A stretch of DNA of 64,000 nt. Source: Gammaproteobacteria bacterium (GTDB lineage Bacteria > Pseudomonadota > Gammaproteobacteria > Ga0077536). Below are positions 40,001-61,155 of the stretch, piece by piece; the stretch's first letter is position 1, and each line of letters opens with the position of its first letter. The translations under genes were made by a program, and so were the position numbers. Below the pieces are notes generated by a model. It saw nothing but the letters and a program-made list of their open reading frames with translations. It was not told the origin of the DNA and made no database searches. The stretch is taken from the NCBI GenBank assembly GCA_963662545.2, contig CAXXLL010000002.1, positions 192,001-256,000 of the forward strand, in the 5' to 3' direction.

Positions 40001-40433
40001 CGAACAGCGCCATAGCGCCGTCACCGGTATATTGATTGACGGTGCCCTCGAAACGGTGCACACCTTCAGTCAAGATCGAAAAAAAGCGCTCCAGGATACG
40101 GTGCCAGTCTTCGGGGTCCAGGCGGGCGGCGAGATTCATTGAGCCCTTTACGTCGGCGAAGAGTACGGTTACCTGTTTGCGCTCGCCTTCGAGCGCCGAG
40201 CGGGAATTCAAGATCTTGTCGACGAGGTGCTTCGGCGTGTAATCGGCGATCGCCCGGGTCGGCAAGGGTTCAGTCTTCGACGCTGTAGTGGATGCCCCGC
40301 ACTTCGAGCAAAATTTCGCGCCGGGTTTGAGTTCGGCGCCGCAGCTTGCGCAGTTTGCCATCAGCGCGGCGCCGCACTCCGAACAGAAAACGTCGTCGGA
40401 TCCGTTTGCATGTTGGCAAGCGGGGCAGTTCAT
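37085..40433 (-). pseudogene. Zn-ribbon/class III cyclase/STAND ATPase/TPR-like protein, paralog 1 (frameshift near 37699)
   Basis: Four CxxC, FADVKGS..TGDG, GEPGLGKS, IDDLHW and GNP motifs. The C-terminal ~200 aa continue in ORF 37085-37783 and match the ends of the other paralogs. Confidence 0.88.
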
Positions 40434-40452
40434 TTTTGCATGCCTGCACCTA

Positions 40453-43400
40453 TCAACCGATCAGCCGGGCCATCCGCTCCGCGTTCCCGGGCGCGCCGAT
40501 CTCCAGAAACAAATCATGTGCTTTCTGCAACTCGACCTCCGGCGACCAGTCACACTTAAAGGCCTGTGCGAATTCCGCGCGGCATTCATGCAGGAAGGGT
40601 TCGAAAGTAGACGCGCCCGTCTCTCGCAGGATGCCCGTAACTTCGTCGATCAGTTCTCGCGCGGCGGCCTGGCCACCTGCCTGAATATGAACGCGTGCCA
40701 TGGCGATCCACGGCTGGAGGGACATTCTGAAATTGTGCTCGCGGCAGTGTGCCAGAATCTCTTCTCCCACGTCCCGCGCTTTATCGATGGCGCCGCTGTT
40801 CAGCAGTGCTTCAACCAGAAACGGATCAGCCGTGGCGCGAAGTAATCCGTATGCGCGGTTGTCCAGAGAAATCTTCCGCCCCCTCTCGAGGTATTCAATC
40901 GCCGCCTCGAAATCTCCATCGATAAACGCGGTGACCCCGGCGCCGAGATCCGCCGCGACCGGTATTACACCGGATGGCGATTTTTCGGCGGTCTCAAACA
41001 GCAAATGAACGAAACGGCGCGCGGTAGTCTGATCGCCGGCATAAGCTGCGTTCGTTAATTCCCAGTAATCGGCGTACACCTTGCCATCGGGAAAAAGGCT
41101 CTGCTGCATTTGCTCGCGCGCCTTTTCATATTGCGGCCCCGCTTCGGCCAGATGCCCGACGACGGACAGTCGCACGGCGTCGGCCAGTGCGATCAGCGCC
41201 GACGGACTGATCGCGGTTGCTGATGTGCCAAAGCGCGTATCATCAGGCAGTTTTTCACGGAGCGCCTGAATGACATCCGCGGCTTCGTGCAGGTTGCCGT
41301 TTGCGTTATGTGCCCAGGGCAGGTAACTCTCCATACTGCATTGCAACTCGAAATCGTCGAGTTCCTTCGCAATATTCGACGCTTCAGTCGTATAAGTCAG
41401 ATAATCGTCGGCATTGGCTAGCCCTACCCCCCGCACGACGCCGTAACCGAGGTAGAGTCCTGCCATAAGTGCCTTGTTCCCCGCGGCCTCGGCCAAGCGT
41501 TTACCGTCTTCGAATAGCTGTTGGGCTTCGGCATCGGTCGAACTCAAGCGCCAGCCGATCATCAGTATGCGCGAGCAGGCAACAGCCCCGGTCGACAGCG
41601 TTGCCGCGTCCGCTGGCAGCTCCTCCGCCAGTTCGCGCACGCGATGCCAATGACGCATCGATGCTGGTGCGTCATGCCCTTCCGTTATTGTGGCCGCGCG
41701 TTGATGCCATTCGAGCGCCTTCGCTAGATCACCGGCAGCGTCCCAGTGGTAAGCGAGCAGTGATGCCTGTTTATCGAGGGCGCTTTGTTCCCCGGCCTCT
41801 ATCGCTTGAGCAACCGCTGCGTGAACCTCCGCGCGGCGCGTCTCGAGTTGTCCGTCGTAGGCGACTTCTTGGGTCAACGGGTGTTTGAAGCCGTATTCGG
41901 CAATCGGATAGAGCGCGCGCTCGTGCACGAAATCACCGTTCTTGAGGCGGTTGATTGCCATTGATAGTTCGTCCGCACTCAATCCGGCAATAGCATTCAA
42001 TAGCGGCCCAGAAAACTCTTTGCCGATCACCGAAGCCGCCTGCAACACGCGCTTGGCGGTGTCCGGCAGCCGGTCGATACGTGCAGCCAGCACCGAGCGC
42101 ACGTTAACGGGTACCTGCAATTCGTCGACCGGCGTCACGCGGCGGTAGGCACCCGGCGCCCCTTCCAGATGCCCACTTTCCGCCAGCATCTGCACGACTT
42201 CTTCGGTAAAGAAAGGATTGCCGCTGGTCCATTGCATGATGCGATCGACGAGTTCCGAAGTTGACGGATCCGTGCCGAGCAGACTTTCGACGAGTTCGCG
42301 CAGATCGGCGGCTTCCAGCGGTACCAATGGGAGTTGCTGGTAATAGGTCTTATTGGTCCACTCGGCCTGGTATTCGGGCCGGAAATTCAACAGAAATAGA
42401 TTGCGGCTGGCCGCAGTGGCTTCCACGAATTGGGCCACGAAGGCGTCACTGCCCTGATCGATCCAGTGCAGATCGTCGATGAAGGCCACGGTCGAGATCC
42501 CCTGCTCGTTGTGCACGCGATAGAATCTATGCATGAGTTCGAAAAGCGCGTGTTGCCGCGCATCGGCATCGAGCTCGGGCGCCGGCCGATCCGGATCGCC
42601 CACCCCCATGAAATCGAACAGCACCGGCAAGCTGTCGATCAGGCTTTCGTCGAGCAGGAGCAGCGCGCCGGCGATCTTCTGCCGCGTCGCGGCCGCGCCA
42701 TCTTGCGACGTGACGCCGAAGTAGCTGCGGTACAGTTCGAGGATCGGGATGTAGGGAATGTTCTTGCCGTGCGCCGGGCAGTGGCCCTCGATCACTTCCA
42801 CGCCATCTGCGCGACACTGCTGGACGAATTCATAGCACAGCCGGCTCTTGCCGAGCCCCGGCTCCCCGACAACACCGACGACCTGTCCATGCCCGTTCCT
42901 GGCCCGCGCCAGCGCGGCGTTCAGAATGTTCATCTCATCGTTGCGGCCGACGAAACGGGTGAGACCGCGTGAGCGGGATACATCGAGACGCGTGCGCGAT
43001 GCCCCCACACCCTCCAGTTCGAATACCCCAACGGGTTCATTCGCGCCGCTCAGTTTCGACACGCCGAGGTCCCGCAGCTCGAAATAACCGTCGACGAGCC
43101 GTTGCGTATGCTCGCTCAGGTAAATTCGATCGGTCGCGGCAAGCTGTTCGATGCGCTGGGCGAGTCCTACGCTGTGTCCCTGGGCGGTGTAGTCCATCCT
43201 GAGGTCGTCACCGATCTTGCCGACGACCACGTCGCCGGAATTGAGTCCGAGCCGCACCCCGAAGTTGAGCCCGCGCTCGATGCGCAGTTGATCCGCGTAG
43301 GCCGTCAACTTCGCGCGCGCGTCGAGCGCCGCATAGCACGCGCGTTGCGCATGGTCTTCATGCGCGATGGGCGCACCGAACAGCGCCATGATCCCGTCGC

Positions 43401-43809
43401 CGGTGTATTGATTGACCGTGCCTTCGTAGCGGTGCACTGCATCGGTCAGAATCGTGAAGAAACGGTCGAGAATGTAGTGCCACGCCTCCGGATCGAGTTG
43501 CTCCGCCAACTCCATCGATCCCTTTACATCGGCGAACATGACCGTCACCTGCTTGCGCTCTCCTTCGAGCGCCGATCGCGTGGTCAGGATCTTTTCGGCA
43601 AGGTGTTTCGGCGTGTAGTCGCCGATGCGACGAGGCGGCGGCTTTACCGATTCACCATCAGCCGTCCCAGTGCCGCACTTCGGGCAAAATTTGGCAGTCG
43701 CTTTAAGTTCGGCGCCGCAATTCGCGCATGACACTGCGAGCTTCGCGCCACATTCTTCGCAGAAGAGAGCGTCTTGATCGTTTGCATGCTGGCAGGTAGG
43801 GCAGTTCAT
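40453..43809 (-). CDS. Zn-ribbon/class III cyclase/STAND ATPase/TPR-like protein, paralog 2
   Basis: 1118 aa, same domain order: Walker A GEPGLGKS, Walker B IDDLHW, WTSGNP, FKHPLTQEVAY and a helical-repeat C-terminus. Confidence 0.92.
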   Translation of the reverse strand: MNCPTCQHANDQDALFCEECGAKLAVSCANCGAELKATAKFCPKCGTGTADGESVKPPPRRIGDYTPKHLAEKILTTRSALEGERKQVTVMFADVKGSMELAEQLDPEAWHYILDRFFTILTDAVHRYEGTVNQYTGDGIMALFGAPIAHEDHAQRACYAALDARAKLTAYADQLRIERGLNFGVRLGLNSGDVVVGKIGDDLRMDYTAQGHSVGLAQRIEQLAATDRIYLSEHTQRLVDGYFELRDLGVSKLSGANEPVGVFELEGVGASRTRLDVSRSRGLTRFVGRNDEMNILNAALARARNGHGQVVGVVGEPGLGKSRLCYEFVQQCRADGVEVIEGHCPAHGKNIPYIPILELYRSYFGVTSQDGAAATRQKIAGALLLLDESLIDSLPVLFDFMGVGDPDRPAPELDADARQHALFELMHRFYRVHNEQGISTVAFIDDLHWIDQGSDAFVAQFVEATAASRNLFLLNFRPEYQAEWTNKTYYQQLPLVPLEAADLRELVESLLGTDPSTSELVDRIMQWTSGNPFFTEEVVQMLAESGHLEGAPGAYRRVTPVDELQVPVNVRSVLAARIDRLPDTAKRVLQAASVIGKEFSGPLLNAIAGLSADELSMAINRLKNGDFVHERALYPIAEYGFKHPLTQEVAYDGQLETRRAEVHAAVAQAIEAGEQSALDKQASLLAYHWDAAGDLAKALEWHQRAATITEGHDAPASMRHWHRVRELAEELPADAATLSTGAVACSRILMIGWRLSSTDAEAQQLFEDGKRLAEAAGNKALMAGLYLGYGVVRGVGLANADDYLTYTTEASNIAKELDDFELQCSMESYLPWAHNANGNLHEAADVIQALREKLPDDTRFGTSATAISPSALIALADAVRLSVVGHLAEAGPQYEKAREQMQQSLFPDGKVYADYWELTNAAYAGDQTTARRFVHLLFETAEKSPSGVIPVAADLGAGVTAFIDGDFEAAIEYLERGRKISLDNRAYGLLRATADPFLVEALLNSGAIDKARDVGEEILAHCREHNFRMSLQPWIAMARVHIQAGGQAAARELIDEVTGILRETGASTFEPFLHECRAEFAQAFKCDWSPEVELQKAHDLFLEIGAPGNAERMARLIG

Positions 43810-43887
43810 CGTTCGTCAGGTCCGCACAGAGATCCAGGGTGATTATCGATCAACCACCCCGCCAGCTACCGAGTGATTACGTCGCGC

Positions 43888-43943
43888 TTGCACAAGAGTA
43901 CCTCAACCATACATAATGTCGTTTGATGTCATTGACATTAAAC
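43888..43943 (+). promoter_or_regulatory. TA promoter and operator palindrome
   Basis: TTGCAC-18 bp-CATAAT followed by the inverted repeat GTTTGATGTCA-T-TGACATTAAAC (43921-43943). Confidence 0.65.
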
Positions 43944-43952
43944 GGGGTTATT

Positions 43953-44174
43953 ATGACTCAAATTACCGCGCGCCTGCCCGACGAACTTGTCCAGGCCTTG
44001 GATCAAACGGCGCGCAGCCTTAATCGCTCCCGGGCCGAAGTGATCCGGCAAGCCGTGGAACGTTACCTGGAAGATTTCGATGACCTGAGTGTCGCAATCG
44101 AGCGATTACAGGATCCTAATGATCCTGTTCTCGACTGGGATGAGGTCAAGCGTGATCTACTCGGTCAGAATTAA
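43953..44174 (+). CDS. RHH (CopG-like) antitoxin
   Basis: ITARLPDEL...RSRAEVIRQAVERYLED with an acidic tail; overlaps the toxin gene. Confidence 0.88.
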   Translation: MTQITARLPDELVQALDQTARSLNRSRAEVIRQAVERYLEDFDDLSVAIERLQDPNDPVLDWDEVKRDLLGQN

Positions 44175-44424
44175 GGGTAGTGCAGCGAAAGAGCTTGCCG
44201 GGATCGAAAAAGCACCTCGGGCGCAGATCATCGAATCGATCGATGCGCTGGCTGAGAATCCCCACAGGGGCAGTGCGCTGAAAGGTGACCTGAGCGGGCT
44301 GCGCCGAATACGCGTTGGTAACTATCGAGTGATCTACGAGATTATCAAGGTTGAAGTCCTTGTCCTCGTAGTCCAGGTGCGACACCGGCGAGATGTCTAT
44401 CGCAAGAGAGGCGCGACTCGCTGA
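44152..44424 (+). CDS. relE: RelE/ParE-family toxin
   Basis: LKGDLSGLRRIRVGNYRVIYEI...VRHRRDVY motif; GTG start at 44152. Confidence 0.9.
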   Translation: MIYSVRIKGSAAKELAGIEKAPRAQIIESIDALAENPHRGSALKGDLSGLRRIRVGNYRVIYEIIKVEVLVLVVQVRHRRDVYRKRGATR

Positions 44425-44433
44425 GATTGACCT

Positions 44434-44574
44434 TCAGCGCCGAGCTCGGTGTGCATCGCGCAGTTCGTCGTCCGCCGACCACTCGCATTTGAATGACCCG
44501 GCGAACGTTGGGCGGCATTCGTAGAGCAATAGTTGGTAGACGTTACTGCTATGCTGGCAGGCGGGGCAGTCCAT
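44434..44574 (-). pseudogene. Collapsed remnant of a fourth cyclase-STAND-TPR paralog
   Basis: Translates MDCPACQHSSNVYQLLLYECRPTFAGSFKCEWSADDELRDAHRARR, i.e. the paralog N-terminus joined to the paralog C-terminus. Confidence 0.82.
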
Positions 44575-44577
44575 TGG

Positions 44578-47500
44578 CTAATCGAGTGCCTTGGCGAGGC
44601 GTTCTACGTGCGTAGTAAGCCCCATCTCTGTGCACAGGCGATGTGCGGTACGCAACTCCTCCTCGGCCGACCACTTACCACCGAAAGCCTTTGCAAATGC
44701 GGCGCGTTGTTCATGGATAAACGGCTGAAAATAGCGACCCTTCGTTTGTGTGATCAGCGTTTGCAGTTCGTCGAGCGCCGCGAGTGCCCCGGATTCATCG
44801 CCCAGCACGATGCGGGCGCGCGCGAGCGAGACCCATGGTTGCATATCATGAATCGAGCGTTTCGACCGACAGAAATCCACGCCGTTTTCTGCCCATCGCA
44901 GGCCGTCTTCAATTTTTCCTTGTTCGATGCAGGCCTCACTTAACGCGCCAGTCGCGGCGCCGCGGTAGTAACGCATTTGCATTGCATCACCGATTTGCAC
45001 CGCGGTTTCGAGAAAATCGTGCGCTCTATCCGTCTCCCACATGTTTAGGCAGGTAATACCCATGCACAAATTCGCAAGCGTACCGGCAAACCCGGCTTCG
45101 CTGTGCCCGGCGTCCTCGTAAACTGAGCGTGCTCGGTCGAGCGCCGTATCCCGATTGCCATCGAGGATCGCGAAACGGCACGCATGATAGCGGCCCAGCC
45201 ACATCATCTCGGGAGACATCTCGGTCGTTGGAAATCGCTCGAACTCACTGAGCAAGCGCTTCGCTTCTTCAAATCGTCCGAGTGTCCAGAGACTACCGCA
45301 CGCCGCGACCGTTAGGCCCGCGCGTATGCTATTACCCATTATCCTTACGCCGAATTCGCCATCATCGGGGCTATTGGCGAGTGCGTATTCTTTGACATTT
45401 AGGGCATCCTCGAACCGGCCTGCCGCGAAGTAGGCCCAGATGAGATAAAAACGCATGCCGAGCCGCAGTTCGGTTTCACCGATCTGATCTGCGAGACGGA
45501 CGGCTTCCTCGGAGTGCTTAACGTACTTCTGCGAATCCCCGATCGTTACGCCTTGCGCCACCGAATATCCACCCTGCAGGTAGACAAGCGTGGTCAGGTC
45601 ACCAGAGCGCTCGGCGAAAGCCTTGCCGTCCTCAAAATTGCGTTCGATATCTTCTTCCTTCCCACCGAGGCGCCAACCCAAGGTTAGGATCTGTGAGCAT
45701 GCCTGAGCACCAAGCATGAGGTTCTCTTTCTCGGGCGGCAGTTCGTCGATGAACTCACGCACGCGACGCCAGTGGTGGATCGAACCGGTTGCATCTTTGC
45801 GATAGGACCAGACTGCTGCACGCCGGTGCCATTCAACGGCTTGTGCGTGATCGCCCGCGACCTCCCAGTGATAAGCGAGCAGCGGCGAGCGCTCATCGAG
45901 ATTGTCGGGCTCGAAGGCCTCGAACGCCTGCGCAACGGCCCCGTGGACCTGTGCACGATGGCTCTGAAGTTGCGAGTTGTACGCAACTTCCTGCGTCAGT
46001 GGGTGTTTAAAAGCGCACTCGACGATCGGGTATAGCGAGCGCTCATAGATAAAGTCGCCGTCCTTCAGAATCTCGAGGGCAATACCGAATTCACTGCTTG
46101 CCAGCTCCGATACGGTCTCGAGTAGCGGCAGGGGAAACTCCTTACCGATCACCGCTGCCGTTTGCAGCAGCTGCTTGCTCGGATCGGACAGGCGATCGAT
46201 GCGTGCAGCGAGTACGGCCCGCACGTTGACAGGCACGGCCAGTTCTCGAACGTCCATAACCAGATGATAGGCACCGGGACTACCCTCGAGCTGCCCGGTC
46301 TCGACCAGTTCCTGAATGACTTCTTCGGTGTAGAACGGATTGCCGGTCGTCCACTGTACGATGCGGTCCGACAACTTGTTCAGCGATGGATCGCCGCCGA
46401 GGATACTGCCGACCAGTTCCCTGATGACCTCGTTGCCCAGAGGCGCAAGCGGCAATTGATGATAATGGGCGCGTCGCATCCAGTCGGCCTGGTATTCGGG
46501 GCGGAAATTTAGCAGCAACAGATTTCGACTGTGCTCTATGGTGGACGCAATTATTTGCGTCAGAAATGCATCACTACCCGGGTCGATCCAGTGCAGGTCG
46601 TCGATAAAAAGAAGCATCGTGATGCCGCGCTCCGCCTGGGCACGGTAGAGCGTATGCAGCATGGAGACGAGCTGCCGTTGCCGGGCGTCGGCGTCGAGCT
46701 CAAGTGCCGGCATATCGGGATCGCCGACACCCATGAATTCGAACAGCACCGGCAGTCCATCGCGCAGACTCTCGTCAAGCAACAGCATCGCGCCGGCAAT
46801 TTTTCGCCTGGCTTCCGTTTCATCGTCCCGGGCCTTGATGCCGAAATAGCTTCGGTACAACGCGAGAATGGGAACGAAGGGAATGTTTTTACCGTGTGCC
46901 GGACAGTGCGCTTCAAGGATCATGAGACCATTTGCACGGCAGCGTTTTACAAATTCCAGGCACAGCCGGCTCTTGCCGAGCCCGGCCTCGCCTACGACCC
47001 CGACCACTTGGCCGTTGCCGGCGCTGGCCTGGGCCAGTGCCGCATCCAGTGTCTGCATTTCGTCATGGCGTCCGACGAAGCGGGTCAGGCCGCGCGATTG
47101 CGACACCTCGATGCGCGTTCTCGATGTCCCGACATCTTCGAGCTCGAAGATACCGGTCGCACTGCCGGTTTTGGATAAATTCGAGGCGCCCAGTGAACGC
47201 AGGCGGAAATAGCCTTCAACGAGGTGTTGTGTGCTTTCGCTTAGATAAACGCGTCCGGGTTCTGCGAGTTGTTCGATGCGTTGCGCAAGGCCGACGGTAT
47301 GCCCCTGGGCCGTGTAATCCATGCGCAGGTCGTCGCCGATCTTGCCTACCACGACCTCGCCGGAGTTGAGACCGATGCGGAGGGCAAAACTCACCCCTCG
47401 CTCGATGCGTAACTGGTCGGCGTAAACGCCGAGCTTCTGCCGGATGTCCAGGGCGGCGTAACAGGCCCGCTGGGCATGATCCTCGTGGGCGATCGGCGCG

Positions 47501-47937
47501 CCGAAGAGTGCCATGATGCCGTCGCCCGTATACTGGTTAACCGTCCCTTCAAATCGATGGACGCCTTCGGTGAGGATGGCGAAGAAGCGATCGAGGATCT
47601 CATGCCATTCTTCCGCGTCGAGCTGGCGCGCCAGTTCCATCGAACCCTTTACATCGGCGAACATAACGGTGAGGTCTTTGCGTTCGCCTTCGAGCGCGGC
47701 TCGAGAGGTCAGGATCTTGTCAGCGAGGTGTTTGGGTGTGTAGTCGGCGATCGATCGTGGTGCTGATATTTCATTTTTGGGGCCCGCTGAAACGTCAATC
47801 CCGCACCCGGGACAGAAACGCGCATTAGGTGACAGTGCTTCGCCACAACTCGCGCAGTTTCGCTCGAGCTTTGCTCCGCAGGATTCGCAGAACCGCGCGC
47901 TGTCGTTATTCGCGTGTTGGCAGGATGGGCAGTTCAT
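44578..47937 (-). CDS. Zn-ribbon/class III cyclase/STAND ATPase/TPR-like protein, paralog 3
   Basis: 1119 aa; GEAGLGKS, IDDLHW, WTTGNP and FKHPLTQEVAY motifs. Confidence 0.92.
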   Translation of the reverse strand: MNCPSCQHANNDSARFCESCGAKLERNCASCGEALSPNARFCPGCGIDVSAGPKNEISAPRSIADYTPKHLADKILTSRAALEGERKDLTVMFADVKGSMELARQLDAEEWHEILDRFFAILTEGVHRFEGTVNQYTGDGIMALFGAPIAHEDHAQRACYAALDIRQKLGVYADQLRIERGVSFALRIGLNSGEVVVGKIGDDLRMDYTAQGHTVGLAQRIEQLAEPGRVYLSESTQHLVEGYFRLRSLGASNLSKTGSATGIFELEDVGTSRTRIEVSQSRGLTRFVGRHDEMQTLDAALAQASAGNGQVVGVVGEAGLGKSRLCLEFVKRCRANGLMILEAHCPAHGKNIPFVPILALYRSYFGIKARDDETEARRKIAGAMLLLDESLRDGLPVLFEFMGVGDPDMPALELDADARQRQLVSMLHTLYRAQAERGITMLLFIDDLHWIDPGSDAFLTQIIASTIEHSRNLLLLNFRPEYQADWMRRAHYHQLPLAPLGNEVIRELVGSILGGDPSLNKLSDRIVQWTTGNPFYTEEVIQELVETGQLEGSPGAYHLVMDVRELAVPVNVRAVLAARIDRLSDPSKQLLQTAAVIGKEFPLPLLETVSELASSEFGIALEILKDGDFIYERSLYPIVECAFKHPLTQEVAYNSQLQSHRAQVHGAVAQAFEAFEPDNLDERSPLLAYHWEVAGDHAQAVEWHRRAAVWSYRKDATGSIHHWRRVREFIDELPPEKENLMLGAQACSQILTLGWRLGGKEEDIERNFEDGKAFAERSGDLTTLVYLQGGYSVAQGVTIGDSQKYVKHSEEAVRLADQIGETELRLGMRFYLIWAYFAAGRFEDALNVKEYALANSPDDGEFGVRIMGNSIRAGLTVAACGSLWTLGRFEEAKRLLSEFERFPTTEMSPEMMWLGRYHACRFAILDGNRDTALDRARSVYEDAGHSEAGFAGTLANLCMGITCLNMWETDRAHDFLETAVQIGDAMQMRYYRGAATGALSEACIEQGKIEDGLRWAENGVDFCRSKRSIHDMQPWVSLARARIVLGDESGALAALDELQTLITQTKGRYFQPFIHEQRAAFAKAFGGKWSAEEELRTAHRLCTEMGLTTHVERLAKALD

Positions 47938-48163: not shown

Positions 48164-49570
48164 TTACGGTGCGGCTCCCGACCCCATGCGCATATCCTTC
48201 ATCCGCCCGTCACTTTGCAACAAACCGAGTACCGCATGATCAAGATCCAATCGCTCGCCGCGCCAGTTCGCTACACACGTCTCCGCGGAAACGTGAATAC
48301 CTCTCGCCCGTACTAATTGGGCAAGGTCTTCGGTCGCGGGCGTCGGTGCGGGTACCTCTGGGAGCAGCATACCGTCGGGACGCAGGAATAATAGCTTGCC
48401 GTCGTCGCGCCGTTCGAGCGTAAAGCCGCCTTCGTGTATGAGTTGGTGATGATGCCGGCACAGCAGTACGAGGTTCTGCACACTGGTCTCGCCGCCGTCC
48501 GCCCAATGCCTTATATGGTGCGCATCGACGCTGCGGTGGCGGATACACCCCGGAAACCGGCAGCCGCGGTCGCGCGCTTCGAGCGCCCGGCGAATAGCGG
48601 ACGGTACGGCACGGGTCTTGCGGCCGATGGCGAGCGGTTCACCATCGGCGTCCTCTTCGATCTGGACGATCCCGGCGTCGCAGGCGAGCCGCCGGGCGGT
48701 CTCCGCGGCCAGGGCCGGGCCATGCTCGATTTCGCAGCGCGTCGTGCGGTCTTCTGCGCGTAAGGTGTCCCGATCGACGTATACGACGATTTGATGGCGG
48801 TCGGCTTGTTTGGATGTAAGCGCGCCATGCGCCAGGAACTGCTCGCCCAGGTGACTGAGCGCATCGGCACGGCGTGTGGCGGCCGGATGCGCTGCACCGG
48901 GTGACGTTCCCGCGGGAACGTCGGCGTCGACGAGCGGTTCTTTGATCTGCCCGGTGGGCACGCCGTCCGCCACGAGATCGTCCGCCGCCGCGGCGAGGGC
49001 CTTAAGCAGCATCGCGCCAGTTTCGGTCGGCAGGCGCGCCTGGATGACCAGCATGCCGTCGTCGTCGTAATACCAGTCCAGGTGGCGCGCTTGGTGTGCA
49101 CCGTTCGCCTTCTCGGTTTCTTCGATTCGCTGCACCTGCCGATAGGCGCGCACCGTCTGCTCGACATGCATCGCCGTGCCGTGGCGCGCGATCATCAATA
49201 AAGTGTCCTCGTTCTCGGGTGTCGCCACGCGGGTCATCGCCCGCACCTTGGAGTAGCTCACGACGCCTGACGCAAACGCCGCGCTGATCTGGGGTAACGA
49301 TTCCAGTGCCCGCGCGACGCGCACCTTTTCACGCGCCGCGCCGAGTGCGATCCCGCATTTCCAGTTGAGCCAGTGGGCGCAGGAGTGTAGGCCGTGCTTG
49401 CCCCAGACTTCGCGGCGGTCGAACTCCGCGATCAGCATGAGCAACTGCCAGGTGGCGGCGGCGATGTTGGCGGCGAGGGTGGTGATCGAGTCTTCCAGGG
49501 CGTCGTCGGGGGATCGCTCAGAATGGAACTCGGGAGGGGTATGGCAAGGCGTGATAGCGAGGTCTTCCAT
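48164..49570 (-). CDS. DUF222-domain HNH endonuclease (13E12/Rv1128c-like)
   Basis: SCAHWLNWKCG, SYSKVRAMTR, ARRLACDA and RDRGCRFPGC...DAHHIRHWADGGETSVQNLVLLCRHHH motifs; GGAG RBS before ATG 49570. Confidence 0.92.
   Translation of the reverse strand: MEDLAITPCHTPPEFHSERSPDDALEDSITTLAANIAAATWQLLMLIAEFDRREVWGKHGLHSCAHWLNWKCGIALGAAREKVRVARALESLPQISAAFASGVVSYSKVRAMTRVATPENEDTLLMIARHGTAMHVEQTVRAYRQVQRIEETEKANGAHQARHLDWYYDDDGMLVIQARLPTETGAMLLKALAAAADDLVADGVPTGQIKEPLVDADVPAGTSPGAAHPAATRRADALSHLGEQFLAHGALTSKQADRHQIVVYVDRDTLRAEDRTTRCEIEHGPALAAETARRLACDAGIVQIEEDADGEPLAIGRKTRAVPSAIRRALEARDRGCRFPGCIRHRSVDAHHIRHWADGGETSVQNLVLLCRHHHQLIHEGGFTLERRDDGKLLFLRPDGMLLPEVPAPTPATEDLAQLVRARGIHVSAETCVANWRGERLDLDHAVLGLLQSDGRMKDMRMGSGAAP
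48276..48922. repeat. Two related 20-bp palindromes inside the HNH gene
   Basis: GACGTTCCCGCGGGAACGTC (48903-48922, perfect) and CACGTCTCCGCGGAAACGTG (48276-48295, 1 mismatch). Confidence 0.8.
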
Positions 49571-49593
49571 GGCGTATTTCGCTCCAGCAAATA

Positions 49594-49613
49594 TACTGTA
49601 ATTATATCCAGTA
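49594..49613 (-). promoter_or_regulatory. LexA (SOS) box overlapping the -10 of the HNH gene
   Basis: Minus strand TACTGGATATAATTACAGTA = TACTG-N10-CAGTA, containing TATAAT, 23 nt upstream of the ATG. Confidence 0.85.
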
Positions 49614-49678
49614 TTTGCTCGCACAGCCAGCATTTTTTCCCTTCGCGTCGTGGAAATTTTTACGGCGACCGGAAGGGC

Positions 49679-51981: not shown

Positions 51982-53832
51982 TTGACCGATCCCGCCCACC
52001 AGGCGCTCAAAGAAGTTTTCGGCTACGACGCCTTTCGCGCGGGGCAACTCGATGCGATCGAAACCGTACTCGCAGGCCGCGACAGCGTCGTGCTCATGCC
52101 GACCGGCGGCGGCAAATCGATCTGTTATCAGATCCCGCCCCTGATCAACGGCGGCTGCACCGTTGTCGTCTCCCCGCTGATCGCGTTGATGCAGGATCAG
52201 GTCACGAGTCTGGACCAGCTAGGGCTCGCTGCCGCGAGTCTCAACTCCGCGATGAACGGTGCCGCGCAGCGCGACGCCATTGAGCGGCTACGAGCCGGTA
52301 CGCTCAAGCTGATTTACCTCGCGCCGGAACGCTTACTGCAACCAGACACGCTCGAAATGCTCAAGCAGTGTGCCGTCAGCTTGATCGCGATCGACGAGGC
52401 GCATTGCGTGTCGCAGTGGGGACATGATTTCCGTCACGACTATCTCGAACTGCACCAGCTGGGTGAGCATTTTCCCGGCGTGCCGCGCATGGCCCTGACC
52501 GCAACCGCCGACGAACGCACCCGCGCGGATATCGCCGAACGGCTCGCGTTACGGGATCCGCGCTGGTTCATCGGCGGATTCGACCGGCCGAACATCCGCT
52601 ACACGGTGCGTGCCCGCGGTAACGCGCGCCAGCAACTGGAAAAATTCCTGGCGACGCGGCGCGGGCAGGCGGGGATCATCTACTGCATGTCGCGGCGCAA
52701 GGTGGAGGAGACAGCCGTGTGGCTGGCCGGGCAGGGGCATCAGGCCCTGCCTTACCACGCGGGCCTCCCATCAGATGTGCGCAGCGACAATCAACATCGC
52801 TTTCTCAACGAAGACGGCGTGATCATGGTCGCGACGATCGCCTTCGGCATGGGCATCGACAAACCCGACGTTCGCTTCGTCGCCCATCTCGATCTGCCCA
52901 AGACCGTCGAGGCCTACTACCAGGAAACCGGAAGGGCGGGGCGCGACAACGAACCGGCCGACGCCTGGATGATCTACGGTTTGCAGGATGTCGTGCGTCT
53001 GCGCCAGATGCTCGACCAATCCGAGGCGGATGAGGATCACAAACGGATCGAACGTCACAAACTCGATGCCTTGCTCGGCTGGTGTGAAGCGACGGAGTGC
53101 CGGCGCCGCCCGCTCCTGGAATATTTTGGTGACGGGCTGACCGCGCCCTGCGGCAACTGTGACAACTGCCTGGAGCCGCCCGTCACCTGGGATGCGACCG
53201 AGGCGGCGCAGAAGCTCCTGTCGTGCATTTTTCGCACAGGGCAGCGCTTCGGCGCGGCGCATGTGATCGATGTGTTGCGCGGGGCCGATACGGATAAAGT
53301 GCACGCGCACGGCCATGCTTCCCTGAGCACCTACGGTATCGGCAGCGAACAGAGCGTCAATCATTGGCGCTCGGTGCTGCGCCAGCTGATGGTGCAGGGT
53401 GCGGTGTATGCGGATGTGGAGCGTTTCGGTGCGCTGAAACTCGGCGCGGACGCGCGGCCTATCCTGCGCGGCGAAGTCGATCTGCGTCTGCGCGAAGACC
53501 TTGCTGAATCACGCGCGCCGCGGCGAACCAAGTCGAAAGTCGACCTCAGCGACGTCGATCCCGAGCTCTGGGAGCGCTTGCGCGCGTGCCGCAAGCGCGT
53601 GGCGGACGAACAGGGCGTGCCGCCCTTCGTCATTTTCCACGACCGCACCTTGCGCGAATTGATCGTCGTGCGTCCCGCGACGCTCGAAGCGATGCTCGAC
53701 GTGAGCGGGATCGGTCAGGCGAAACTCGAACGCTATGGAAAAATATTTCTGGACGAATTGAACGCGGTGCCGGCAAACGCGCGAAGCGGAACCGATCGCG
53801 AAATTCGGAACGGCAATCCGGCCAAGCGATGA
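51982..53832 (+). CDS. recQ: ATP-dependent DNA helicase RecQ
   Basis: [22 protein letters not shown] and [11 protein letters not shown] motifs; Zn domain CRR..CGNCDNC, RQC and HRDC. Confidence 0.97.
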
Positions 53833-53845
53833 CGAAAGCCCTGTT

Positions 53846-54904
53846 GTGAAACTCGAAACACTTTTGCCTCTCGGCAAGCTCGATCCCGGGTTACGGGAGC
53901 CCGGGACGCCGTTCGATATTGCGCGCCTTGCCGAGGACGCGCGCCGGGTGGAAGCGCTCGGTTACGACGCCGTCATGTTCGAGGAAACCAAGCACGATCC
54001 CTATGTGCTCATGGCGTTGGCCGCCCAGGCGACGACTCGTCTCGGCATCGGTAGCGCAGTTGCAATCGCGTTTCCCCGCAGCCCCGCCGTCACCGCGATG
54101 AGCGCCTAGACGCTGCAGAAGCTTTCCCACGGTCGTTTCGTTCTAGGGCTTGGTACGCAAGTCAAGGCCCACATCGAACGCCGCTACGGGGTCAAATGGT
54201 CCGCCCCTGGACCCTGGATGCGGGAATACGTGCAGGCCGTGCACGCTATCTGGCACGCCTGGCAGAATGGTGAACAGCCCGCGTTTCACGGCGAGCATTA
54301 TGAAATCAGCCTGAACGTACCGCTGTTCGATCCGGGACCTATCGCGCACCCGAAGATCCCGGTCCACCTTGCGGCCGTCAACGCTTACATGTGTCGGGTT
54401 GCGGGTGAAATTGCCGATGGGCTGCGCCCGCATCCGGTGTGTACCGCGGATTACATTCGAGACGTGATGCTGCCGGCCGCGCGGACGGGAGCGGCGCGGG
54501 CGGGCCGTACGCTGGACGACTTCGCGATCAGCATCAAGCCCTTGATCGCGACTGCGCCCGACGAGGACTCGCTCGAGATCAGGATCCGCGACGTACGTGC
54601 GCGCATCGCGTTCTACGCCTCGACTCCGGCCTACCGCGCGGCGTTTGCGCTGCATGGTCTCGGCGAGCTTGCCGATGAACTCAAACATTTATCCCGCGCA
54701 CAGCGCTGGGAGGAGATGCCGCCCTTCATTTCCGACGAGGTATTACACCGGTACGCGTGTGTCGGCACCTACGATGCGATTGCCGGCAAGCTCGCGGACC
54801 GTTACGGGGGGCTGGCGACCAACGTCGAATTCAGTATTCCGGTCGCGACCGATGAAGATGAAGAAATACTCCGAGGGATCCTGAAGGACTTGAAACGGGT
54901 GTGA
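53846..54904 (+). pseudogene. Probable F420-dependent LLM oxidoreductase interrupted by an in-frame TAG (54107-54109)
   Basis: Frame reads AFPRSP..TAMSA*TLQKLSHGRFVLGLGTQVKAHIERRYG and continues in frame into ORF 54218-54904 (FYASTPAYR). Confidence 0.88.
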
Positions 54905-55077
54905 ACGGCTGATCTAACGTGTAAAAACTCAAACTCGATTTGACAGATTAAAAGCGGAGTTCAAACTTGCTCGGTCAGTTCCGACACGTGAATTGATGTC
55001 CGCTAATGAAGGCATTCCGGCCAAACTTCGAGGTGACGATTTCCGTCGCAACCGGCCAATAGCGGACAGGAGGGTGG

Positions 55078-55740
55078 CTAGTCGGCCGCGAAGCAATACA
55101 GGAAGCCTTCTCCGCCGGTGTTCACCAGGTTCTGCTGACTGCAGCCGCGCGATGGATGAGTGGAGTTCCACGAGGTGTTGCCGCCCCCGTGCCGATCGTG
55201 GTGGCCTACCTGCGCGCTACCTTTGCCGTCTTCCGAACTCGTCCAGTTACTGCAGGTATGGTCGCCTTTCTCCCACGGAAAGTAGGCCGTGCCGTCGTCC
55301 TTGGAACCTGTCAGGATGTCGTGTTTGTTTGGCTTGTCACCGCGCCCGTTGACCAAATTGCCGTTTTCATCCAGCGCTGTGCGTTTGACGATGTTGGGGC
55401 CCAGGTGCAGTTGGTCGAGGTCGCTGGCGATCAATTCGCCGCGCGCGTTATACCAGGGGCCTTTGCCGATCCGGTCGCGCGCGGATTTAGCGTATGCTTT
55501 GCCGTCGGGTGATTGTGTGCTCAGGTAGGCGCGCCACTCCCGTGCTTTGGAACCGGCGGCTTCGGCCAACTTGGCGCAGTGTGCATCGGCCCCTTTGAGC
55601 CCGCCGAGGTCAGCGCCTTTACCGATACTAACGCTGGTCACGAAAAAGCCCATCGAGTGATCGGCTGCGGTCGTAGTACCCGTCACCATCAGTAGTCCGG
55701 CGACAATCACTATTGTTGTGGCGGTTTCTGCGATTTTCAT
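55078..55740 (-). CDS. Secreted lectin-like (C-type lectin/endostatin-like fold) protein
   Basis: Signal peptide; FFVTS, GGLKGADAHC, WRAYLS, ARDRIGKGPW, CSNWTS and LYCFA motifs; strong GGAGG RBS. Confidence 0.75.
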   Translation of the reverse strand: MKIAETATTIVIVAGLLMVTGTTTAADHSMGFFVTSVSIGKGADLGGLKGADAHCAKLAEAAGSKAREWRAYLSTQSPDGKAYAKSARDRIGKGPWYNARGELIASDLDQLHLGPNIVKRTALDENGNLVNGRGDKPNKHDILTGSKDDGTAYFPWEKGDHTCSNWTSSEDGKGSAQVGHHDRHGGGNTSWNSTHPSRGCSQQNLVNTGGEGFLYCFAAD

Positions 55741-56023
55741 TTTGGTTTCCTCCTGAAATACGGCGCTTATTGGACACTGCAGTTTAGCGTCAACGGGGAC
55801 AGATTTGTTTGAGTGAACTACGTGACTAAACAATTCCGCCACCTTGAGCCCGAAACTTCCGCTTCGGGTCGTGAGCTGCCGGATCGCGGCAGTGCAGCAC
55901 GGCTCTAGATTGCGTCTGCATTGCGCTCAAGAGCGGTCGTCCAACAGCGTTCGGCAACGTGACCATAACGAGCGGCGGCTAGCGGCCAGGAGCAACGGTC
56001 GTCCGGCACATCGCAACATTGTC

Positions 56024-57317
56024 TTAATCCGGAATGATCGCCATCAAGTCGATCGCGACCTTACAATCCGGGACCAACATCGGTTTCGGCACGCGCACCG
56101 TCGTGCTCGCCGGTGGGTCGCTCGGGAATTCCTCGGCCCAGGTGACGAACGACGTGAAGAACTCCGTAAAATCGTTATACAGACCGCGCCGGCGCACCCC
56201 GTGTGGTGCCTGCAGCCTTGCAGATCGCATCGATGTTTTTCACGATATACAGCACCTGCTTCTCCGCCGCGGAGCTGAAGGAGGGAAAGTTCGGATCGAC
56301 GCGCGCCTCAGCTGGCAAGCCGGTTTTATAATCGGTCGCCATTTGCTGCGAGAAAAAGAGAAACGGGCCGGCTAGCACGGCCTGGGGCTCATGCACCGAC
56401 GGCGTCGGTGCTTTATCGGTGTGAATCGTTCGCTTGGCCGGACCGTCTTCTGGTACATAGGCGACCAGGTCGACGGCGATGTCGATCCCCGGGACGCCCA
56501 GGCTGTTCACCGGGATGGTGCATCGCGCGGGTGGATCAGTCGGGAAGTGCTTTTTCCACACCTGCTCGAAGCGGTAGAAATCATTCGGGTTGGTTAAATA
56601 CACGTTGGCCTTGACGACGTCCGCCATCGAGGCCCCGCCCTCTTCGAGAATGATCTTGAGCTTGTCGATGATGTACTCGGTCTGCAGCCGGGCACTCTCG
56701 CCGTAATAGATGAAATTCGGATCGAGCCAGGCTTCGGGGGCCACGCCCTGGTCGAAATCGGTCGCCGTTATGCCGGCGGTAAAAATATAGGGACCGGCCT
56801 TGGTCCCGTAGTTGAACAGGGGCCGGTCATCGAGCCCGGTGGGTACCGGACGCGGGAGTGACGACGGGTTGAGGACCTCGATCTTCTCCCCTTTTTCGGG
56901 CACGAACCCGATCGCGTCCACTTCGAGCGTGCAGCCGGGTACGGGCAACTCTTCGACACACACAGTTGTATGCGGCGCCACGCCCGCTTGACCGAATGCT
57001 TGCTGCATCACCTTCGACGCATCGTGCACCTCGCCGACATCCGTTTGATACAGGATCATTTGCAGGCAATTCTCCAGCGATGAGCCGCCCGCCTCCAAGG
57101 TGGTTTTCAGATTCTTTGCAATGAAGTCGGTTTGTCGTTCGATGTTCGATCCGTGATGCGGAAACCGGTCGTTAGTTTTTGCCGCGGGCGGAATACCTTT
57201 CTCGAAGTCGGAGGCGACCTGCCCGGAGATGAGAACCAGGGGACCGGCTTTGACTAAAGGTGAATATTGGACGCGCGGTCGTGGCAGAGTATCGGGGAAA
57301 ATTGCTTCTTTTTTCAT
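56024..57317 (-). pseudogene. Triple-domain RidA/YjgF-family protein, frameshifted near 56197
   Basis: Three repeats of (K/L)AGP.......A.D.. ending in ..(V/I)D....P. The third repeat is completed by ORF 56024-56230 in another frame. Confidence 0.8.
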
Positions 57318-57410
57318 GTGTTCTTACTCCCAAGGGCAGCCACATCGTTTGCGTTTTTACACTGGACAGTCAATAGGCCGATGAATGCGCGATCGCGATA
57401 CACGAAATTT

Positions 57411-58529
57411 TCACTTGGAAATCGCGGGTTCAGTCAGCGCCGCGTTCACCGCGGGCATGACCTCCGTCGCCATCAATTCCATCGAGCGCTGCGCCAGGTC
57501 GGGATCCATCCAGTCGTGCCCCGCATAGACCAGCGTGCCGAAATCGCCGACTGTTTCGCGAAAGGCCAGGAGCTGGTCGACGACGCTGCCGGCGGTACCG
57601 GCGATGACCAGCGAGTCCATCACGTATTCATGGGTGACCGCTTCGTCCGGCATGTCGGGATCCTTTTTAAAGAGCTCGGGCCGACCGTTGCCAATGAGTT
57701 TGCGCATGAGGTTTTTGTAATAAAACCCGTAGGGTCCGTCCGCGCTCTTGCCGTAAGCCCGGGCCGTTTTTTCGTCGTCCGCCACGAAGATGCTTTTCGC
57801 GACGCGCCAATTGCTCGCCCGTGGCCGACGACCGCCCAGCGCACAGCCTTCGACGTACTTCGGCCAATGCGTGGCGACCCATTGTGGCTGTAGAAAATTC
57901 GCGGAAATGATGCTCCAGCCGCGTTCGCCGGCCCGCGTTACGCTGCTGGAATAAGGTGACATCGAGGTCACGACAATAGGTGGGTGCGGCTTTTGATAGG
58001 GTTTGAGCATGATGCCCTGTCCGATCTCACGGTCGAGCGTGCGCGCGGTGGTGATCTCCCAAAACTGGCCCTTGATGTCGTAAGGTGCGTCACTGCGCCA
58101 GATCTCGAGAACCTGGTCGATGGCCTCGACGAACATCGCCGTTCGGTCGGCCTCGAGGTTCCCGAACACCTCGGCATCGGAGCGCAAACCGCCGGGGCTG
58201 ATGCCGAACAGGAAGCGGCCTTCCAACATCGTGTCGAGCATGGCGACCTGAGCCGCCACCTGTGCCGGGTGGTTGTTCGGCATGTTGACCGTGCCGCTGC
58301 CGAGTTTTATTTTTTTTGTCTCGTGCGCGAGACTGGCGCAGAACATCAATGACGACGTGACCGTTTCGGCAATGTCGGTGACGTGTTCACCGATAAAGGC
58401 CTCTGCATAACCCAAATCGTCGGCCAGCAGGATGGCTTCGCGATCTTCAGTGAGCGTTTCGACATAGTTCCGCCCGGGTGGATGAAGCGGCATCATGAAG
58501 ATACTGAGTTGGACGGCCGTCTTTGGCAT
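57411..58529 (-). CDS. LLM-class flavin-dependent oxidoreductase
   Basis: FMMPLHP, AFIGEH, IKLGSGTVN, GRFLFGISPG and PYQKPHPPI motifs. Confidence 0.9.
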   Translation of the reverse strand: MPKTAVQLSIFMMPLHPPGRNYVETLTEDREAILLADDLGYAEAFIGEHVTDIAETVTSSLMFCASLAHETKKIKLGSGTVNMPNNHPAQVAAQVAMLDTMLEGRFLFGISPGGLRSDAEVFGNLEADRTAMFVEAIDQVLEIWRSDAPYDIKGQFWEITTARTLDREIGQGIMLKPYQKPHPPIVVTSMSPYSSSVTRAGERGWSIISANFLQPQWVATHWPKYVEGCALGGRRPRASNWRVAKSIFVADDEKTARAYGKSADGPYGFYYKNLMRKLIGNGRPELFKKDPDMPDEAVTHEYVMDSLVIAGTAGSVVDQLLAFRETVGDFGTLVYAGHDWMDPDLAQRSMELMATEVMPAVNAALTEPAISK

Positions 58530-58587
58530 CGATAGCAGTTCCGTTAGCACGCAGCTGCGCCGGAGGCGAACGATTCTAGGGGAGGTC

Positions 58588-59331
58588 TTGATCCGCGACA
58601 AGCAATGGTGGCGCGTAGATAAACGCGCGTACGACGTCTTCGACAACCTGGGTCTTTCCGTGTTAGAGGGCGCGCCCGCGCTTGCGACCTGCCCGGACAA
58701 CGCGTGTTCCCTGTGGGGGGAGCACTATGTGAATCACTCCTCCTGGGGTGTGGCGTTTCACGATCGGTTTCTGAACGGCCCGGCGCTGCGCTCGAACCTG
58801 CTGTACACGCACCTCGTTTTTCATTCAATCGTCTTCGTGCTGCTGCATATACAGCTCATGCGGCCCGGTTCGGCGAACGACCGGGGCTGGCACAGCCTGC
58901 TCGGCCGTATCTCGTTCGTTTGTCTCACCATTGCGACTGCCTGCGCCGTGTGGTTGGCTTCCGAGCACGGGCCGGTCACTGCCTACGGCGGCGAATTGTC
59001 GAAATACGGGTTCTGGTTTATGTCGCTTTGCGTTTACTCGTGCGCCGTGATGGGCGTCGTGGCGATACGCAATGGCAATGCAGTTGTTCACCGCATCTGG
59101 ATGATTCGCTTCGCCGGATCGATGTGGGGCTCGTTTTGGATATTCCGATTTATGCTGTTGGTGACAGGTCCGCTGCTGCGCAATTGGGAGTCGGCTTCTT
59201 TGTTGATCAGCATCTGGTTCTCGGCGCCACTCGGTATTTTGATCGCTGAGGCATTACGCAAGAAGTGGGACCGGCGTGCTGATGGCGCCGAGGCGCCAGC
59301 TATGTCGAGCGCCGTTGGCCTGGAAGGCTGA
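58588..59331 (+). CDS. DUF2306-like multi-pass membrane protein, possibly N-truncated
   Basis: About 5 TM segments with conserved-looking His (THL, WHSLLGR, HRIWMIR). Start uncertain. Confidence 0.6.
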   Translation: MIRDKQWWRVDKRAYDVFDNLGLSVLEGAPALATCPDNACSLWGEHYVNHSSWGVAFHDRFLNGPALRSNLLYTHLVFHSIVFVLLHIQLMRPGSANDRGWHSLLGRISFVCLTIATACAVWLASEHGPVTAYGGELSKYGFWFMSLCVYSCAVMGVVAIRNGNAVVHRIWMIRFAGSMWGSFWIFRFMLLVTGPLLRNWESASLLISIWFSAPLGILIAEALRKKWDRRADGAEAPAMSSAVGLEG

Positions 59332-59634
59332 ATGAGGGGGCAAATATACGCGGAAGCAGCGCACTCCAGCCTCAAAGAATTCCTCCCGCTGAGCAGAGGG
59401 GAGTCGAGCTGCTGCCGATCGCCGCAACGGGTCGACTCCGGACTCCTGCAGTGCAGCATGGCGTGGCTGCTCACCGCGGTATAGCGGACCCTCATCTCGT
59501 AAAGCCTGATAGCACAGTGCTGTGTATATGCGACGGCACTCGCCAGGGCAGGTCGTATCCAGGATGCCAATCTGTAAGAACGAGTCCAGGTTTTTACATC
59601 TAACGTGGTTTTACCGCCGGCATCCGTCGCGGGC

Positions 59635-60099
59635 TCAGGACGGCTCCGTGTCGCGAATAACGGAGCCACCGACCCCGTAAGTGCGCCCACGAAAATGACA
59701 GACCGCCTCGCCTTCTCCGTTGACGATGCTGACGTTGTACATACCCATTCGTTTCGTGCGATTGCCCTCGATCGCCTCGGCGGTCAAGGTTTCGCCGACT
59801 TTTGCCGGACGTAAATAATCGATGTTCGCGTGCAATGCGAGGTGCTGTTGATTGTGTGAATTACTGGCGAAGGCCATCGCCGAATCGGCCAGGGAGAAGA
59901 GCAGCCCGCCGTGACACATGGTATGGCCCTGGATCATCCAGGCTTCGACCGTCATCGACATGCGCGCGTATCCCGGCCGGATTTCGTCGAGCGTGATCCC
60001 CAGTTCGCGCGACGCGCGGTCGCGTGCGTACATGGAATCGCCGGCGGCCTGCGCCAGTGCACCCGGGTCTAGATCGTCTGCATCGATTGATTCACTCAT
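59635..60099 (-). CDS. paaI: PaaI-family hot-dog acyl-CoA thioesterase
   Basis: DRASRELGI, CHGGLLFSLADSAMAFASNS and HFRGRTY motifs. Confidence 0.85.
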   Translation of the reverse strand: MSESIDADDLDPGALAQAAGDSMYARDRASRELGITLDEIRPGYARMSMTVEAWMIQGHTMCHGGLLFSLADSAMAFASNSHNQQHLALHANIDYLRPAKVGETLTAEAIEGNRTKRMGMYNVSIVNGEGEAVCHFRGRTYGVGGSVIRDTEPS

Positions 60100-60109
60100 C
60101 GAGTAAGGT

Positions 60110-60829
60110 TCAGTCCCGTCCGGCCTCCAGGATCTTGCGTGCCAGGAGCGCCGGATCGGTAAAGCACAGTTCGTGACTGCCGGGCGTCTGTACCAGCCGG
60201 AAGAGCCCGAGCTTTTGTGACAGCCGCGGATGCCAGGGCTCGTGATGCGGCAGCGCCGTATCCTCGGTGCAGTTAAGGTAGGATTTCGGGATCGTGAATT
60301 CCGATGGATTGCTGGACAGCTTGATCGGATCGGAAAACGTTTTGCGCGGGTGCGGGTTCAACTGGTCGTAGGCGCTCTGCGCGAGCTCGCAAGATGCATC
60401 GTTGATGAAGGCCTCCCGCCAGATGGGAAACGGCAGCGAGAATGAGCCGTCGTCCTGAACCAGTTCGTTGAAGAGGTCGATGTAAATGGGCGGGATCATG
60501 TCGTCCAGTGCTTCGCCGTCGTTGGGTACGAAAGCATTCCAGTAGACAAGGCGGCGGATCTTATCGGCGATGCGGTCGGCCGCGCCCGTGATGACCATGC
60601 CGCCGTAGCTGTGGCCGGCGAGGATGATGTCGTCCAGTTTGCGCTCCGCGATGAATGCGACCAGCGAATCGATCGCCTCGGCCAGGCCAACCTGCTTGGA
60701 ATCGCCCGGCCGGTTGCCGGCCAAGGTGGGCAGGTGCACCTCGTGACCGGCTTCGCGCATCGGCGCCGCGGTGGCTTCGAGCAATTCCCCGGTATGCCAG
60801 GCGCCGTGCACGAACACATAGCAACTCAT
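60110..60829 (-). CDS. Alpha/beta hydrolase (esterase)
   Basis: FVHGAWH, nucleophile GHSYGG and PGSHE motifs. Confidence 0.9.
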   Translation of the reverse strand: MSCYVFVHGAWHTGELLEATAAPMREAGHEVHLPTLAGNRPGDSKQVGLAEAIDSLVAFIAERKLDDIILAGHSYGGMVITGAADRIADKIRRLVYWNAFVPNDGEALDDMIPPIYIDLFNELVQDDGSFSLPFPIWREAFINDASCELAQSAYDQLNPHPRKTFSDPIKLSSNPSEFTIPKSYLNCTEDTALPHHEPWHPRLSQKLGLFRLVQTPGSHELCFTDPALLARKILEAGRD

Positions 60830-61155
60830 TTGGTTTCTATTAGAATCTCGCGGTAGCGCGTGGGTCCGGCGTTGCGCGCACTGTGGGTTGCTGGCACGCG
60901 GTGTCCCTTGTCATCCACCGATATCAACTCGTCACCGTCACACCGGAGCGCGAATACGGCGCCCGTCTGGGCATCGAACGGGCTGAGTGCCTGATCATCC
61001 GCGTCGAAGACCTCGAGCGGGGCACCGTCGAGCACGTAGAAGACATAGTCGTGTTTGTGGGTGTGAACCGGCGTCGTCTCGCCGGGTTCCAGCGTGAATT
61101 CCCAGACGATGATCTTGTCGTTTTCGAATACCTTGGTCGTGCCTACGTCGCTCAT
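60826..61155 (-). CDS. Cupin-domain protein
   Basis: FENDKIIVWEFTLEPGE..HTHKHDY...HSARN motifs. Confidence 0.85.
   Translation of the reverse strand: MSDVGTTKVFENDKIIVWEFTLEPGETTPVHTHKHDYVFYVLDGAPLEVFDADDQALSPFDAQTGAVFALRCDGDELISVDDKGHRVPATHSARNAGPTRYREILIETK

Follow-up and report, generated by a model that had tools for sequence, protein, structure and literature searches.

A probable transposase-less cargo cassette with TGT/ACA inverted repeats and a 7-bp target duplication in a gammaproteobacterial contig

Background

Mobile insertion cassettes (MICs) are described, in the sections of PMC4337579 and PMC3129680 devoted to them, as passenger genes enclosed by repeats of the insertion sequence (IS) type, devoid of a transposase gene and moved by the cognate enzyme. 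The examples treated there, MIC231 of Bacillus cereus and the TnXax1-derived cassettes of Xanthomonas, combine IS-type terminal inverted repeats (TIRs) with a target duplication, lack a transposase and are presumed to move in trans; each has a known parent, namely IS231 and the Tn3-family transposon TnXax1 (GAGGG tips, 5-bp duplications), respectively. Transposase-less cassettes are rarely annotated, yet shift metabolic genes among genomes. The locus reported here is located in a stretch of 64,000 nucleotides (the window, the positions of which are used throughout) of contig CAXXLL010000002.1 (192,001–256,000) from the gammaproteobacterial assembly GCA_963662545.2, and comprises the 4,679 bp from 54920 to 59598. 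It shares the general architecture of MICs and differs from the described examples by TGT/ACA tips, a 7-bp duplication and the lack of a detected parent.

The segment 54920–59598 is probably a non-autonomous cargo-carrying transposon, i.e., a mobile insertion cassette, which arrived by way of a staggered cut and the enzyme of which is encoded elsewhere. This reading draws on the ends, the flanking duplication, the absence of an internal transposase and the empty site in related genomes; in addition, the end recurs in other genomes and the cargo is conserved discordantly. The window copy is a clean case, since its duplication is perfect, its site is found empty and its cargo exceeds the surrounding core genes by far in conservation.

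Terminal repeats and target duplication

The left end (54920–54949, forward strand; TGTAAAAACTCAAACTCGATTTGACAGATT, tip TGT) and the right end (59569–59598, reverse strand; tip ACA, reverse complement TGTAAAAACCTGGACTCGTTCTTACAGATT) were recovered by an inverted-pair search as the longest inverted pair within 53500–61000. They are identical at 23 of 30 positions, with exact agreement over the first nine nucleotides TGTAAAAAC, over ACTCG (positions 14–18) and over ACAGATT (positions 24–30). Directly outside each end lies a perfect copy (7/7) of TCTAACG, at 54913–54919 and 59599–59605. The initial annotation had reported both the repeats and the duplication, and its coordinates and sequences are confirmed. 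The window contains one case of an exact 7-bp direct repeat placed directly outside an inverted repeat with 23/30 identities or more and a pair distance of up to 10 kb, and 60 second-order Markov shuffles contain none; relaxation to 21/30 yielded 0.08 such structures per shuffle. When two mismatches at most are allowed, the motif TGTAAAAAC-N4-ACTCG has three matches in the window versus 0.18 expected.

An 8-bp duplication (TCTAACGT) can also be read, since the element starts with T and the flank likewise continues with T after the right copy. The left end then becomes GTAAAAAC and the two ends are asymmetric and unequal by one base, for which reason 7 bp is the simpler reading. Elements of the IS66 family have ends beginning with GTAA and 8-bp duplications; a comparison with them via the 8-bp reading is possible, but incurs the same inequality of the ends. 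A 5-bp duplication is ruled out, as TAACG adjoins the left end and TCTAA the right one. Target duplications of 5 bp are formed by Tn7, Tn5053 and Mu, and this group is excluded on the same grounds. Among the families put forward in the initial annotation, Tn7 and Tn5053 are accordingly dismissed, and IS481 and IS21 are still compatible.

The four main open reading frames (ORFs) of the cassette match DUF1554 (weakly), RidA, luciferase-like (LLM) oxidoreductases and DUF2306, and none of them matches a transposase family. Of 22 minor ORFs of at least 60 amino acids (aa), 21 have no family and one has a meaningless KAAG1 match at E 0.02. The earlier statement that no recombinase is encoded inside is thus borne out, and no transposase was detected among the 43 ORFs scanned elsewhere in the 64-kb window. 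The G+C content is 58.5 % inside the cassette versus 60.8 % and 60.7 % in the flanks, a small difference. Rfam yielded no match at E values up to 0.1 within 53500–60500, and a scan for promoters and terminators returned signals at background level. A literature search retrieved no match for TGTAAAAAC in the context of inverted repeats or transposition, though end tables in supplements or ISfinder may hold one; among the matches listed for TGTAAAAAC alone, the contexts were unrelated, and no '7-bp direct repeats' were found in an IS context.

Insertion site in related genomes

The cassette is located between two convergent genes, a TIGR03617-type LLM gene on the left (53846–54904, forward strand), the stop codon of which lies 8 nt before the duplication, and a PaaI thioesterase gene on the right (59635–60099, reverse strand; assigned by family profile), the stop codon of which lies 29 nt after it. 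Without the cassette and one repeat copy, the two stop codons would be 44 bp apart. An empty site in relatives had been proposed as a check, and in two related metagenome-assembled genomes (MAGs) the flanking genes are indeed contiguous and the cassette is missing from the site, as read from the accession order and contig sizes of MAG proteins rather than from the DNA of the relatives. In one MAG, the LLM protein MEE2984198.1 and a partial PaaI protein, MEE2984199.1, have adjoining accessions on a contig of 72,034 nt, with no gene between them; MEE2984199.1 represents the C-terminal 94 aa of PaaI, which is the portion nearest to the LLM gene. A triple-RidA protein (RidA3) of this MAG, MEE2982209.1, is encoded on a separate 13,726-nt contig and is 98 % identical to P0126, an intact 433-aa RidA3 copy from a 5,809,490-nt contig; the four flank clusters contain no named member from the accession range of MEE2982209.1. 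In the other MAG, a single contig of 3,380 nt encodes both the LLM protein MGE4615506.1 and the alpha/beta hydrolase MGE4615509.1; a 4.7-kb insert would not fit on it. Cargo LLM and RidA3 (MGE4616757 and MGE4616758) of this MAG are located on a 3,151-nt contig.

Conservation of the cargo was compared with that of the neighbouring core genes by assigning cargo and flank clusters to the same genome through the length of the longest contig, which is an indirect match. On a 5,915,696-nt contig, RecQ has 76 % identity to that of the window; of two RidA3 proteins there, one shares 92 % identity with P0126 and the other 71 % with the window copy. On a 3,733,320-nt contig, RecQ is 65 % identical and the endostatin-like protein 90 %. 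The cargo is thus 90–92 % identical where RecQ reaches only 65–76 %, and from these sequence comparisons a horizontal spread of the cargo appears likely. Several large contigs represented in the cargo clusters (at least 90 % identity) are absent from the flank-cluster members listed, which cover 13 of 13 for RecQ and 15 of 17–21 for the others.

Related ends in other genomes

Ends related to those of the window, for which the initial annotation had suggested a search, do exist in other genomes, and in one MAG such an end is multicopy. A single scan of 185,579 species genomes with the pattern TGTAAAAAC-N4-ACTCG-N5-ACAG (18 fixed bases) returned 11 loci (L001–L011), versus about 17 chance matches expected at uniform composition. 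Six of them (L001, L006, L007, L008, L010, L011) lie inside open frames of 364–1,201 codons and are taken as chance matches for that reason. Among the five located outside long frames, four loci, representing three elements, are clear relatives: L009, L003/L004 and L005.

The locus L009, from a gammaproteobacterial MAG, is 84 % identical to the window over an 82-bp left-end module (54920–55001, forward strand; L009 positions 10027–9946), which consists of the TIR and a further 52 bp up to the ATGTCC start. The homology begins precisely at the tip (54920) and stops after the shared ATGTCC; the remainder of the 20-kb locus has no match in the window. L003 and L004, both from one alphaproteobacterial MAG, are contigs that break off 141 and 136 nt, respectively, into an identical element end. 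They share 136 identical nucleotides and differ in their outside flanks; since repeats give such termini in an assembly with k = 141, the end is considered multicopy in that MAG. L005, from a Nitrospirae MAG, agrees with L004 at 10 of the 12 positions left free by the pattern. At these free positions, a count over six ends (the two of the window and those of L009, L004, L005 and L002) gave T22 in 6/6, T20 in 5/6 and A28 in 5/6 cases, versus 1/6, 0/6 and 1/6, respectively, in the six coding matches.

Outside the tip, the bases −5 to −2 read T-W-A-S at 5/5 sites (TCTAACG in the window, TATTAGT in L009, TGTAAGC in L005, TATAAGT in L003 and ATTAAGG in L004), a pattern that was noticed after the fact and that the window repeat fits on the other strand, too. 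Ungapped, fuzzy and nhmmer searches detected no further end copy in the window or in L001–L011, and the end scan returned no full-length autonomous relative. In a plasmid collection, blastn with the whole cassette gave only distant single-gene matches (66–74 %), and neither the ends nor the cargo as queries returned a useful match. Just inside the end of L002, the fifth locus outside long frames, lie two overlapping frames (12647–14435) that represent a split SulP/STAS sulfate-permease gene.

The comparison of the ends was also meant to reveal the cognate transposase, an expectation that did not hold. Pfam detected no transposase in 29 ORFs of L002, L005, L008 and L010, and among 18 ORFs of L009 the sole transposase is of the IS1595 type (8238–9290). 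In L009, the 82-bp module is followed by a methyltransferase-like fragment, which is interrupted by a separate IS1595-family element of 4.9 kb (4847–9704) with passenger ORFs. This element has its own 28-nt repeats (4847–4874 and 9677–9704; 93 % complementary), and its ends, GGGGATTATG..., are unrelated to the TGT ends. Its lack of a matching 8-bp duplication suggests a rearrangement. The IS1595-type transposase was therefore rejected as the cognate enzyme, and membership of the window cassette in the IS1595 family was likewise rejected.

Comparison with known families

As regards the features by which MICs are recognized, passenger genes flanked by TIRs, no internal transposase and a flanking duplication were found in the window, and ends related to its repeats were found at four loci, none of them beside a cognate transposase. 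Transporter IS, of which the IS1595-family element in L009 is an example, likewise have IS-type ends around several kilobases of unrelated genes, but keep their own transposase, according to the part of PMC3129680 concerned with them; the L009 element has merely inserted into a relative of the window element.

TGT/ACA tips are common to the IS3, IS481 and IS1202 families and to Tn7, as far as these are covered in the relevant parts of bioRxiv 10.1101/2022.12.17.520857 and PMC10132070. With IS1202-family elements of the ISAjo2/ISAba32 type, the cassette shares these tips, an imperfect TIR (24–26 bp there, 30 bp here) and a C at position 9, according to the description of such elements in PMC10132070. 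A further feature described for this family in the corresponding sections of the same two sources is an inner TIR copy located 7–10 bp inside each end. A candidate second direct copy of the inner TIR part is present in the window 10 bp past the left TIR (54960–54980, forward strand; 14/21, shuffle p 0.004), and the same test was non-significant at the right end (11/21, p 0.39) and in L009, L004, L005 and L002. The duplications listed for the family in the preprint measure 5–6, 16–17 or 27–28 bp, in contrast to 7 bp (8 bp on the alternative reading) here. ISAba32-type elements are described in part of this literature as lying 5 bp from dif-like sites, whereas none is located near the window insertion: five XerD-arm matches with two mismatches were found versus 4.3 expected, the nearest at 50817. 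No IS1202-type transposase was seen.

The IS481 family shares the tips, and its duplications range from 2 to 15 bp, such that 7 bp is allowed, which amounts to compatibility only; they are mostly of 6 bp, and those of IS3 measure 3–5 bp, according to the passages on both families in PMC10045372. No DDE transposase of the IS481, IS21 or IS3 type (plus IstB in the case of IS21) was found in the window or beside the related ends; it could be encoded elsewhere in the genome.

Origin of the cassette

The cassette would have entered the 44-bp spacer between the convergent TIGR03617 LLM and PaaI genes, with a staggered cut-and-join reaction giving rise to the 7-bp duplication TCTAACG. As no transposase is encoded in the cassette, one encoded elsewhere must have acted, and would recognize ends of the form TGTAAAAAC-N4-ACTCG-N5-ACAG. 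This enzyme would be a DDE (RNase-H-fold) transposase of the group with TG/CA ends, acting in trans and presumably favouring a T-W-A-S core in its target. A non-autonomous cargo element mobilized in trans had also been the interpretation of the initial annotation. It is supported in part, by the ends, the duplication, the missing recombinase, the empty site and the recurring end; mobilization in trans is presumed, and the search for the transposase was negative.

Several points weigh against this reading. No cognate transposase was found, none being present within 10 kb of the L002, L005 and L009 ends, and the only transposase near any related end, that of L009, belongs to the separate IS1595-family element. 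No partner end was detected within 10 kb of L002, L005 and L009 by an ungapped scan, fuzzy patterns or an nhmmer profile of the six ends, and L002 itself is a doubtful member, with 5 of 12 free positions matching the left end of the window. No second complete element came to light, and the window copy is therefore the single source for the 7-bp length of the duplication. The source genome is not among the 11 loci of the scan. As to the empty site, MAG bins can mix strains and are not clones, the accession MGE4615507 between LLM and PaaI in the second MAG is unexplained, and the MAG with the MEE accessions has no member in the cluster of the cargo LLM at 90 % identity or more (21 of 21 members read). 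Lastly, the pairing of RecQ and cargo across genomes is indirect.

The main rival is a dead relic: a larger autonomous transposon inserted and subsequently lost its transposase by internal deletion or replacement of its cargo, the cassette itself never having moved. Such an origin is conceivable, though on balance doubtful. It would agree with the L009 homology, which stops 82 bp in, right after the shared ATGTCC, as in an interior replacement, with the divergence of the ends at 7 of 30 positions, with the frameshift of one cargo gene (triple RidA) in the window, and with the ends of L002, L005 and L009 lacking a partner within 10 kb, as expected of large elements or solo ends. The duplication is, however, still perfect (7/7), and cargo genes at least 90 % identical occur in the very MAGs with an empty LLM/PaaI site. 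The cargo is also found on contigs with a RecQ only 65–76 % identical and thus travels, even if those copies may lack the repeats. A system other than a DDE transposase, for instance the exchange of a module through homologous or site-specific recombination, with another role for the repeats, would fit the lack of a transposase of any kind adjoining the related ends. This explanation is unlikely, as TG/CA tips combined with TIRs and a short duplication around them are the classical hallmark of transposition by a staggered cut in the accounts of such elements in parts of PMC10132070 and PMC10045372, and neither an integrase nor a tRNA gene nor an att-like structure was found at the cassette, tRNA genes being absent from the whole 64-kb window.

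Chance, with inverted and direct repeats coinciding around four genes native to the locus, is a very unlikely explanation. Although one complete copy only is known and the neighbourhood is likewise rich in LLM genes, none of the 60 shuffles reproduces the structure, the L009 homology begins precisely at the tip, the end is multicopy in another MAG and the site is empty in relatives.

More speculatively, the ends might define an undescribed family of TGT/ACA cargo transposons that crosses phyla (Gamma- and Alphaproteobacteria, Nitrospirae), forms 7-bp duplications with a T-W-A core at their centre and employs a transposase which is outside the catalogued IS families or always away from the cargo-bearing ends. 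Such a family would explain why three clear relatives and the window copy have no adjacent transposase. The end motif can be used to search for the remaining family and its enzyme. A new enzyme would extend the known transposon families by one with a stagger of 7 bp, an unusual length; an enzyme of the IS481 or IS1202 type would make it a routine addition to the catalogue of MICs.

Cargo genes

The cargo named in the initial annotation is upheld for the triple RidA, the LLM oxidoreductase and the DUF2306 protein, with the qualification that the triple RidA is frameshifted, and the label 'lectin-like' for the remaining protein is based on weak evidence. The latter (55078–55740, reverse strand) is a 220-aa, probably secreted protein with a signal-peptide-like N-terminus. 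It scored 22.3 bits against DUF1554, below the cut-off of 27.5, and E 0.038 against endostatin in a PDB sequence search; the nearest atlas clusters carry the automatic names endostatin family or putative lectin. Its fold model (pLDDT 34, from an alignment of six near-identical rows) is unusable.

The triple-RidA gene (56024–57317, reverse strand) was delimited by comparison with intact relatives of 433 aa, of which P0001 is 97 % identical and contains three RidA stretches. In the window, the frame is shifted near 56198–56199, which agrees with a net loss of about 8 nt, and the open frame stops at 56175 after 380 aa. The 380-aa form is found on one contig only and 433-aa forms in other assemblies with contigs of similar size; the frameshift may represent an assembly error or a strain-specific lesion. 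Two triple-RidA genes are apparently present on each of the contigs of 5,915,696 and 6,297,714 nt, with one of them about 92–94 % identical to P0126 and the other about 69–71 % to the window copy, the genomes being paired indirectly.

The LLM flavin oxidoreductase gene (57411–58529, reverse strand) was assigned by family profiles, none of the named subfamilies scoring above cut-off, and its relatives are annotated with 372 aa. The gene for the DUF2306 membrane protein (58588–59331, forward strand) was given the start used in related MAG annotations.

Neighbouring genes

The neighbourhood of the cassette is rich in LLM genes. The flanking TIGR03617-type gene, assigned by family profile and comparison with relatives, is interrupted by an in-frame TAG (54107–54109) at a position where the 352-aa relative P0197 has W. 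A 228-aa product from downstream of this TAG is recorded on five contigs, for which reason the break appears real and not an assembly error. Further to the left, the window contains three tandem paralogues of about 925–1,119 aa (37656–47937), all of which combine a double zinc ribbon with an adenylate/guanylate cyclase domain and an AAA_16 (STAND-like) ATPase, and a gene for a ParE-type toxin (44089–44424) is located between the second and the third of them. Adjoining an SfnG/RutA-like LLM gene, a 489-aa protein composed of DUF222 and an HNH endonuclease is encoded at 48164–49633; this architecture, known from actinobacterial REP13E12-type elements, is found here in a gammaproteobacterial-looking context.

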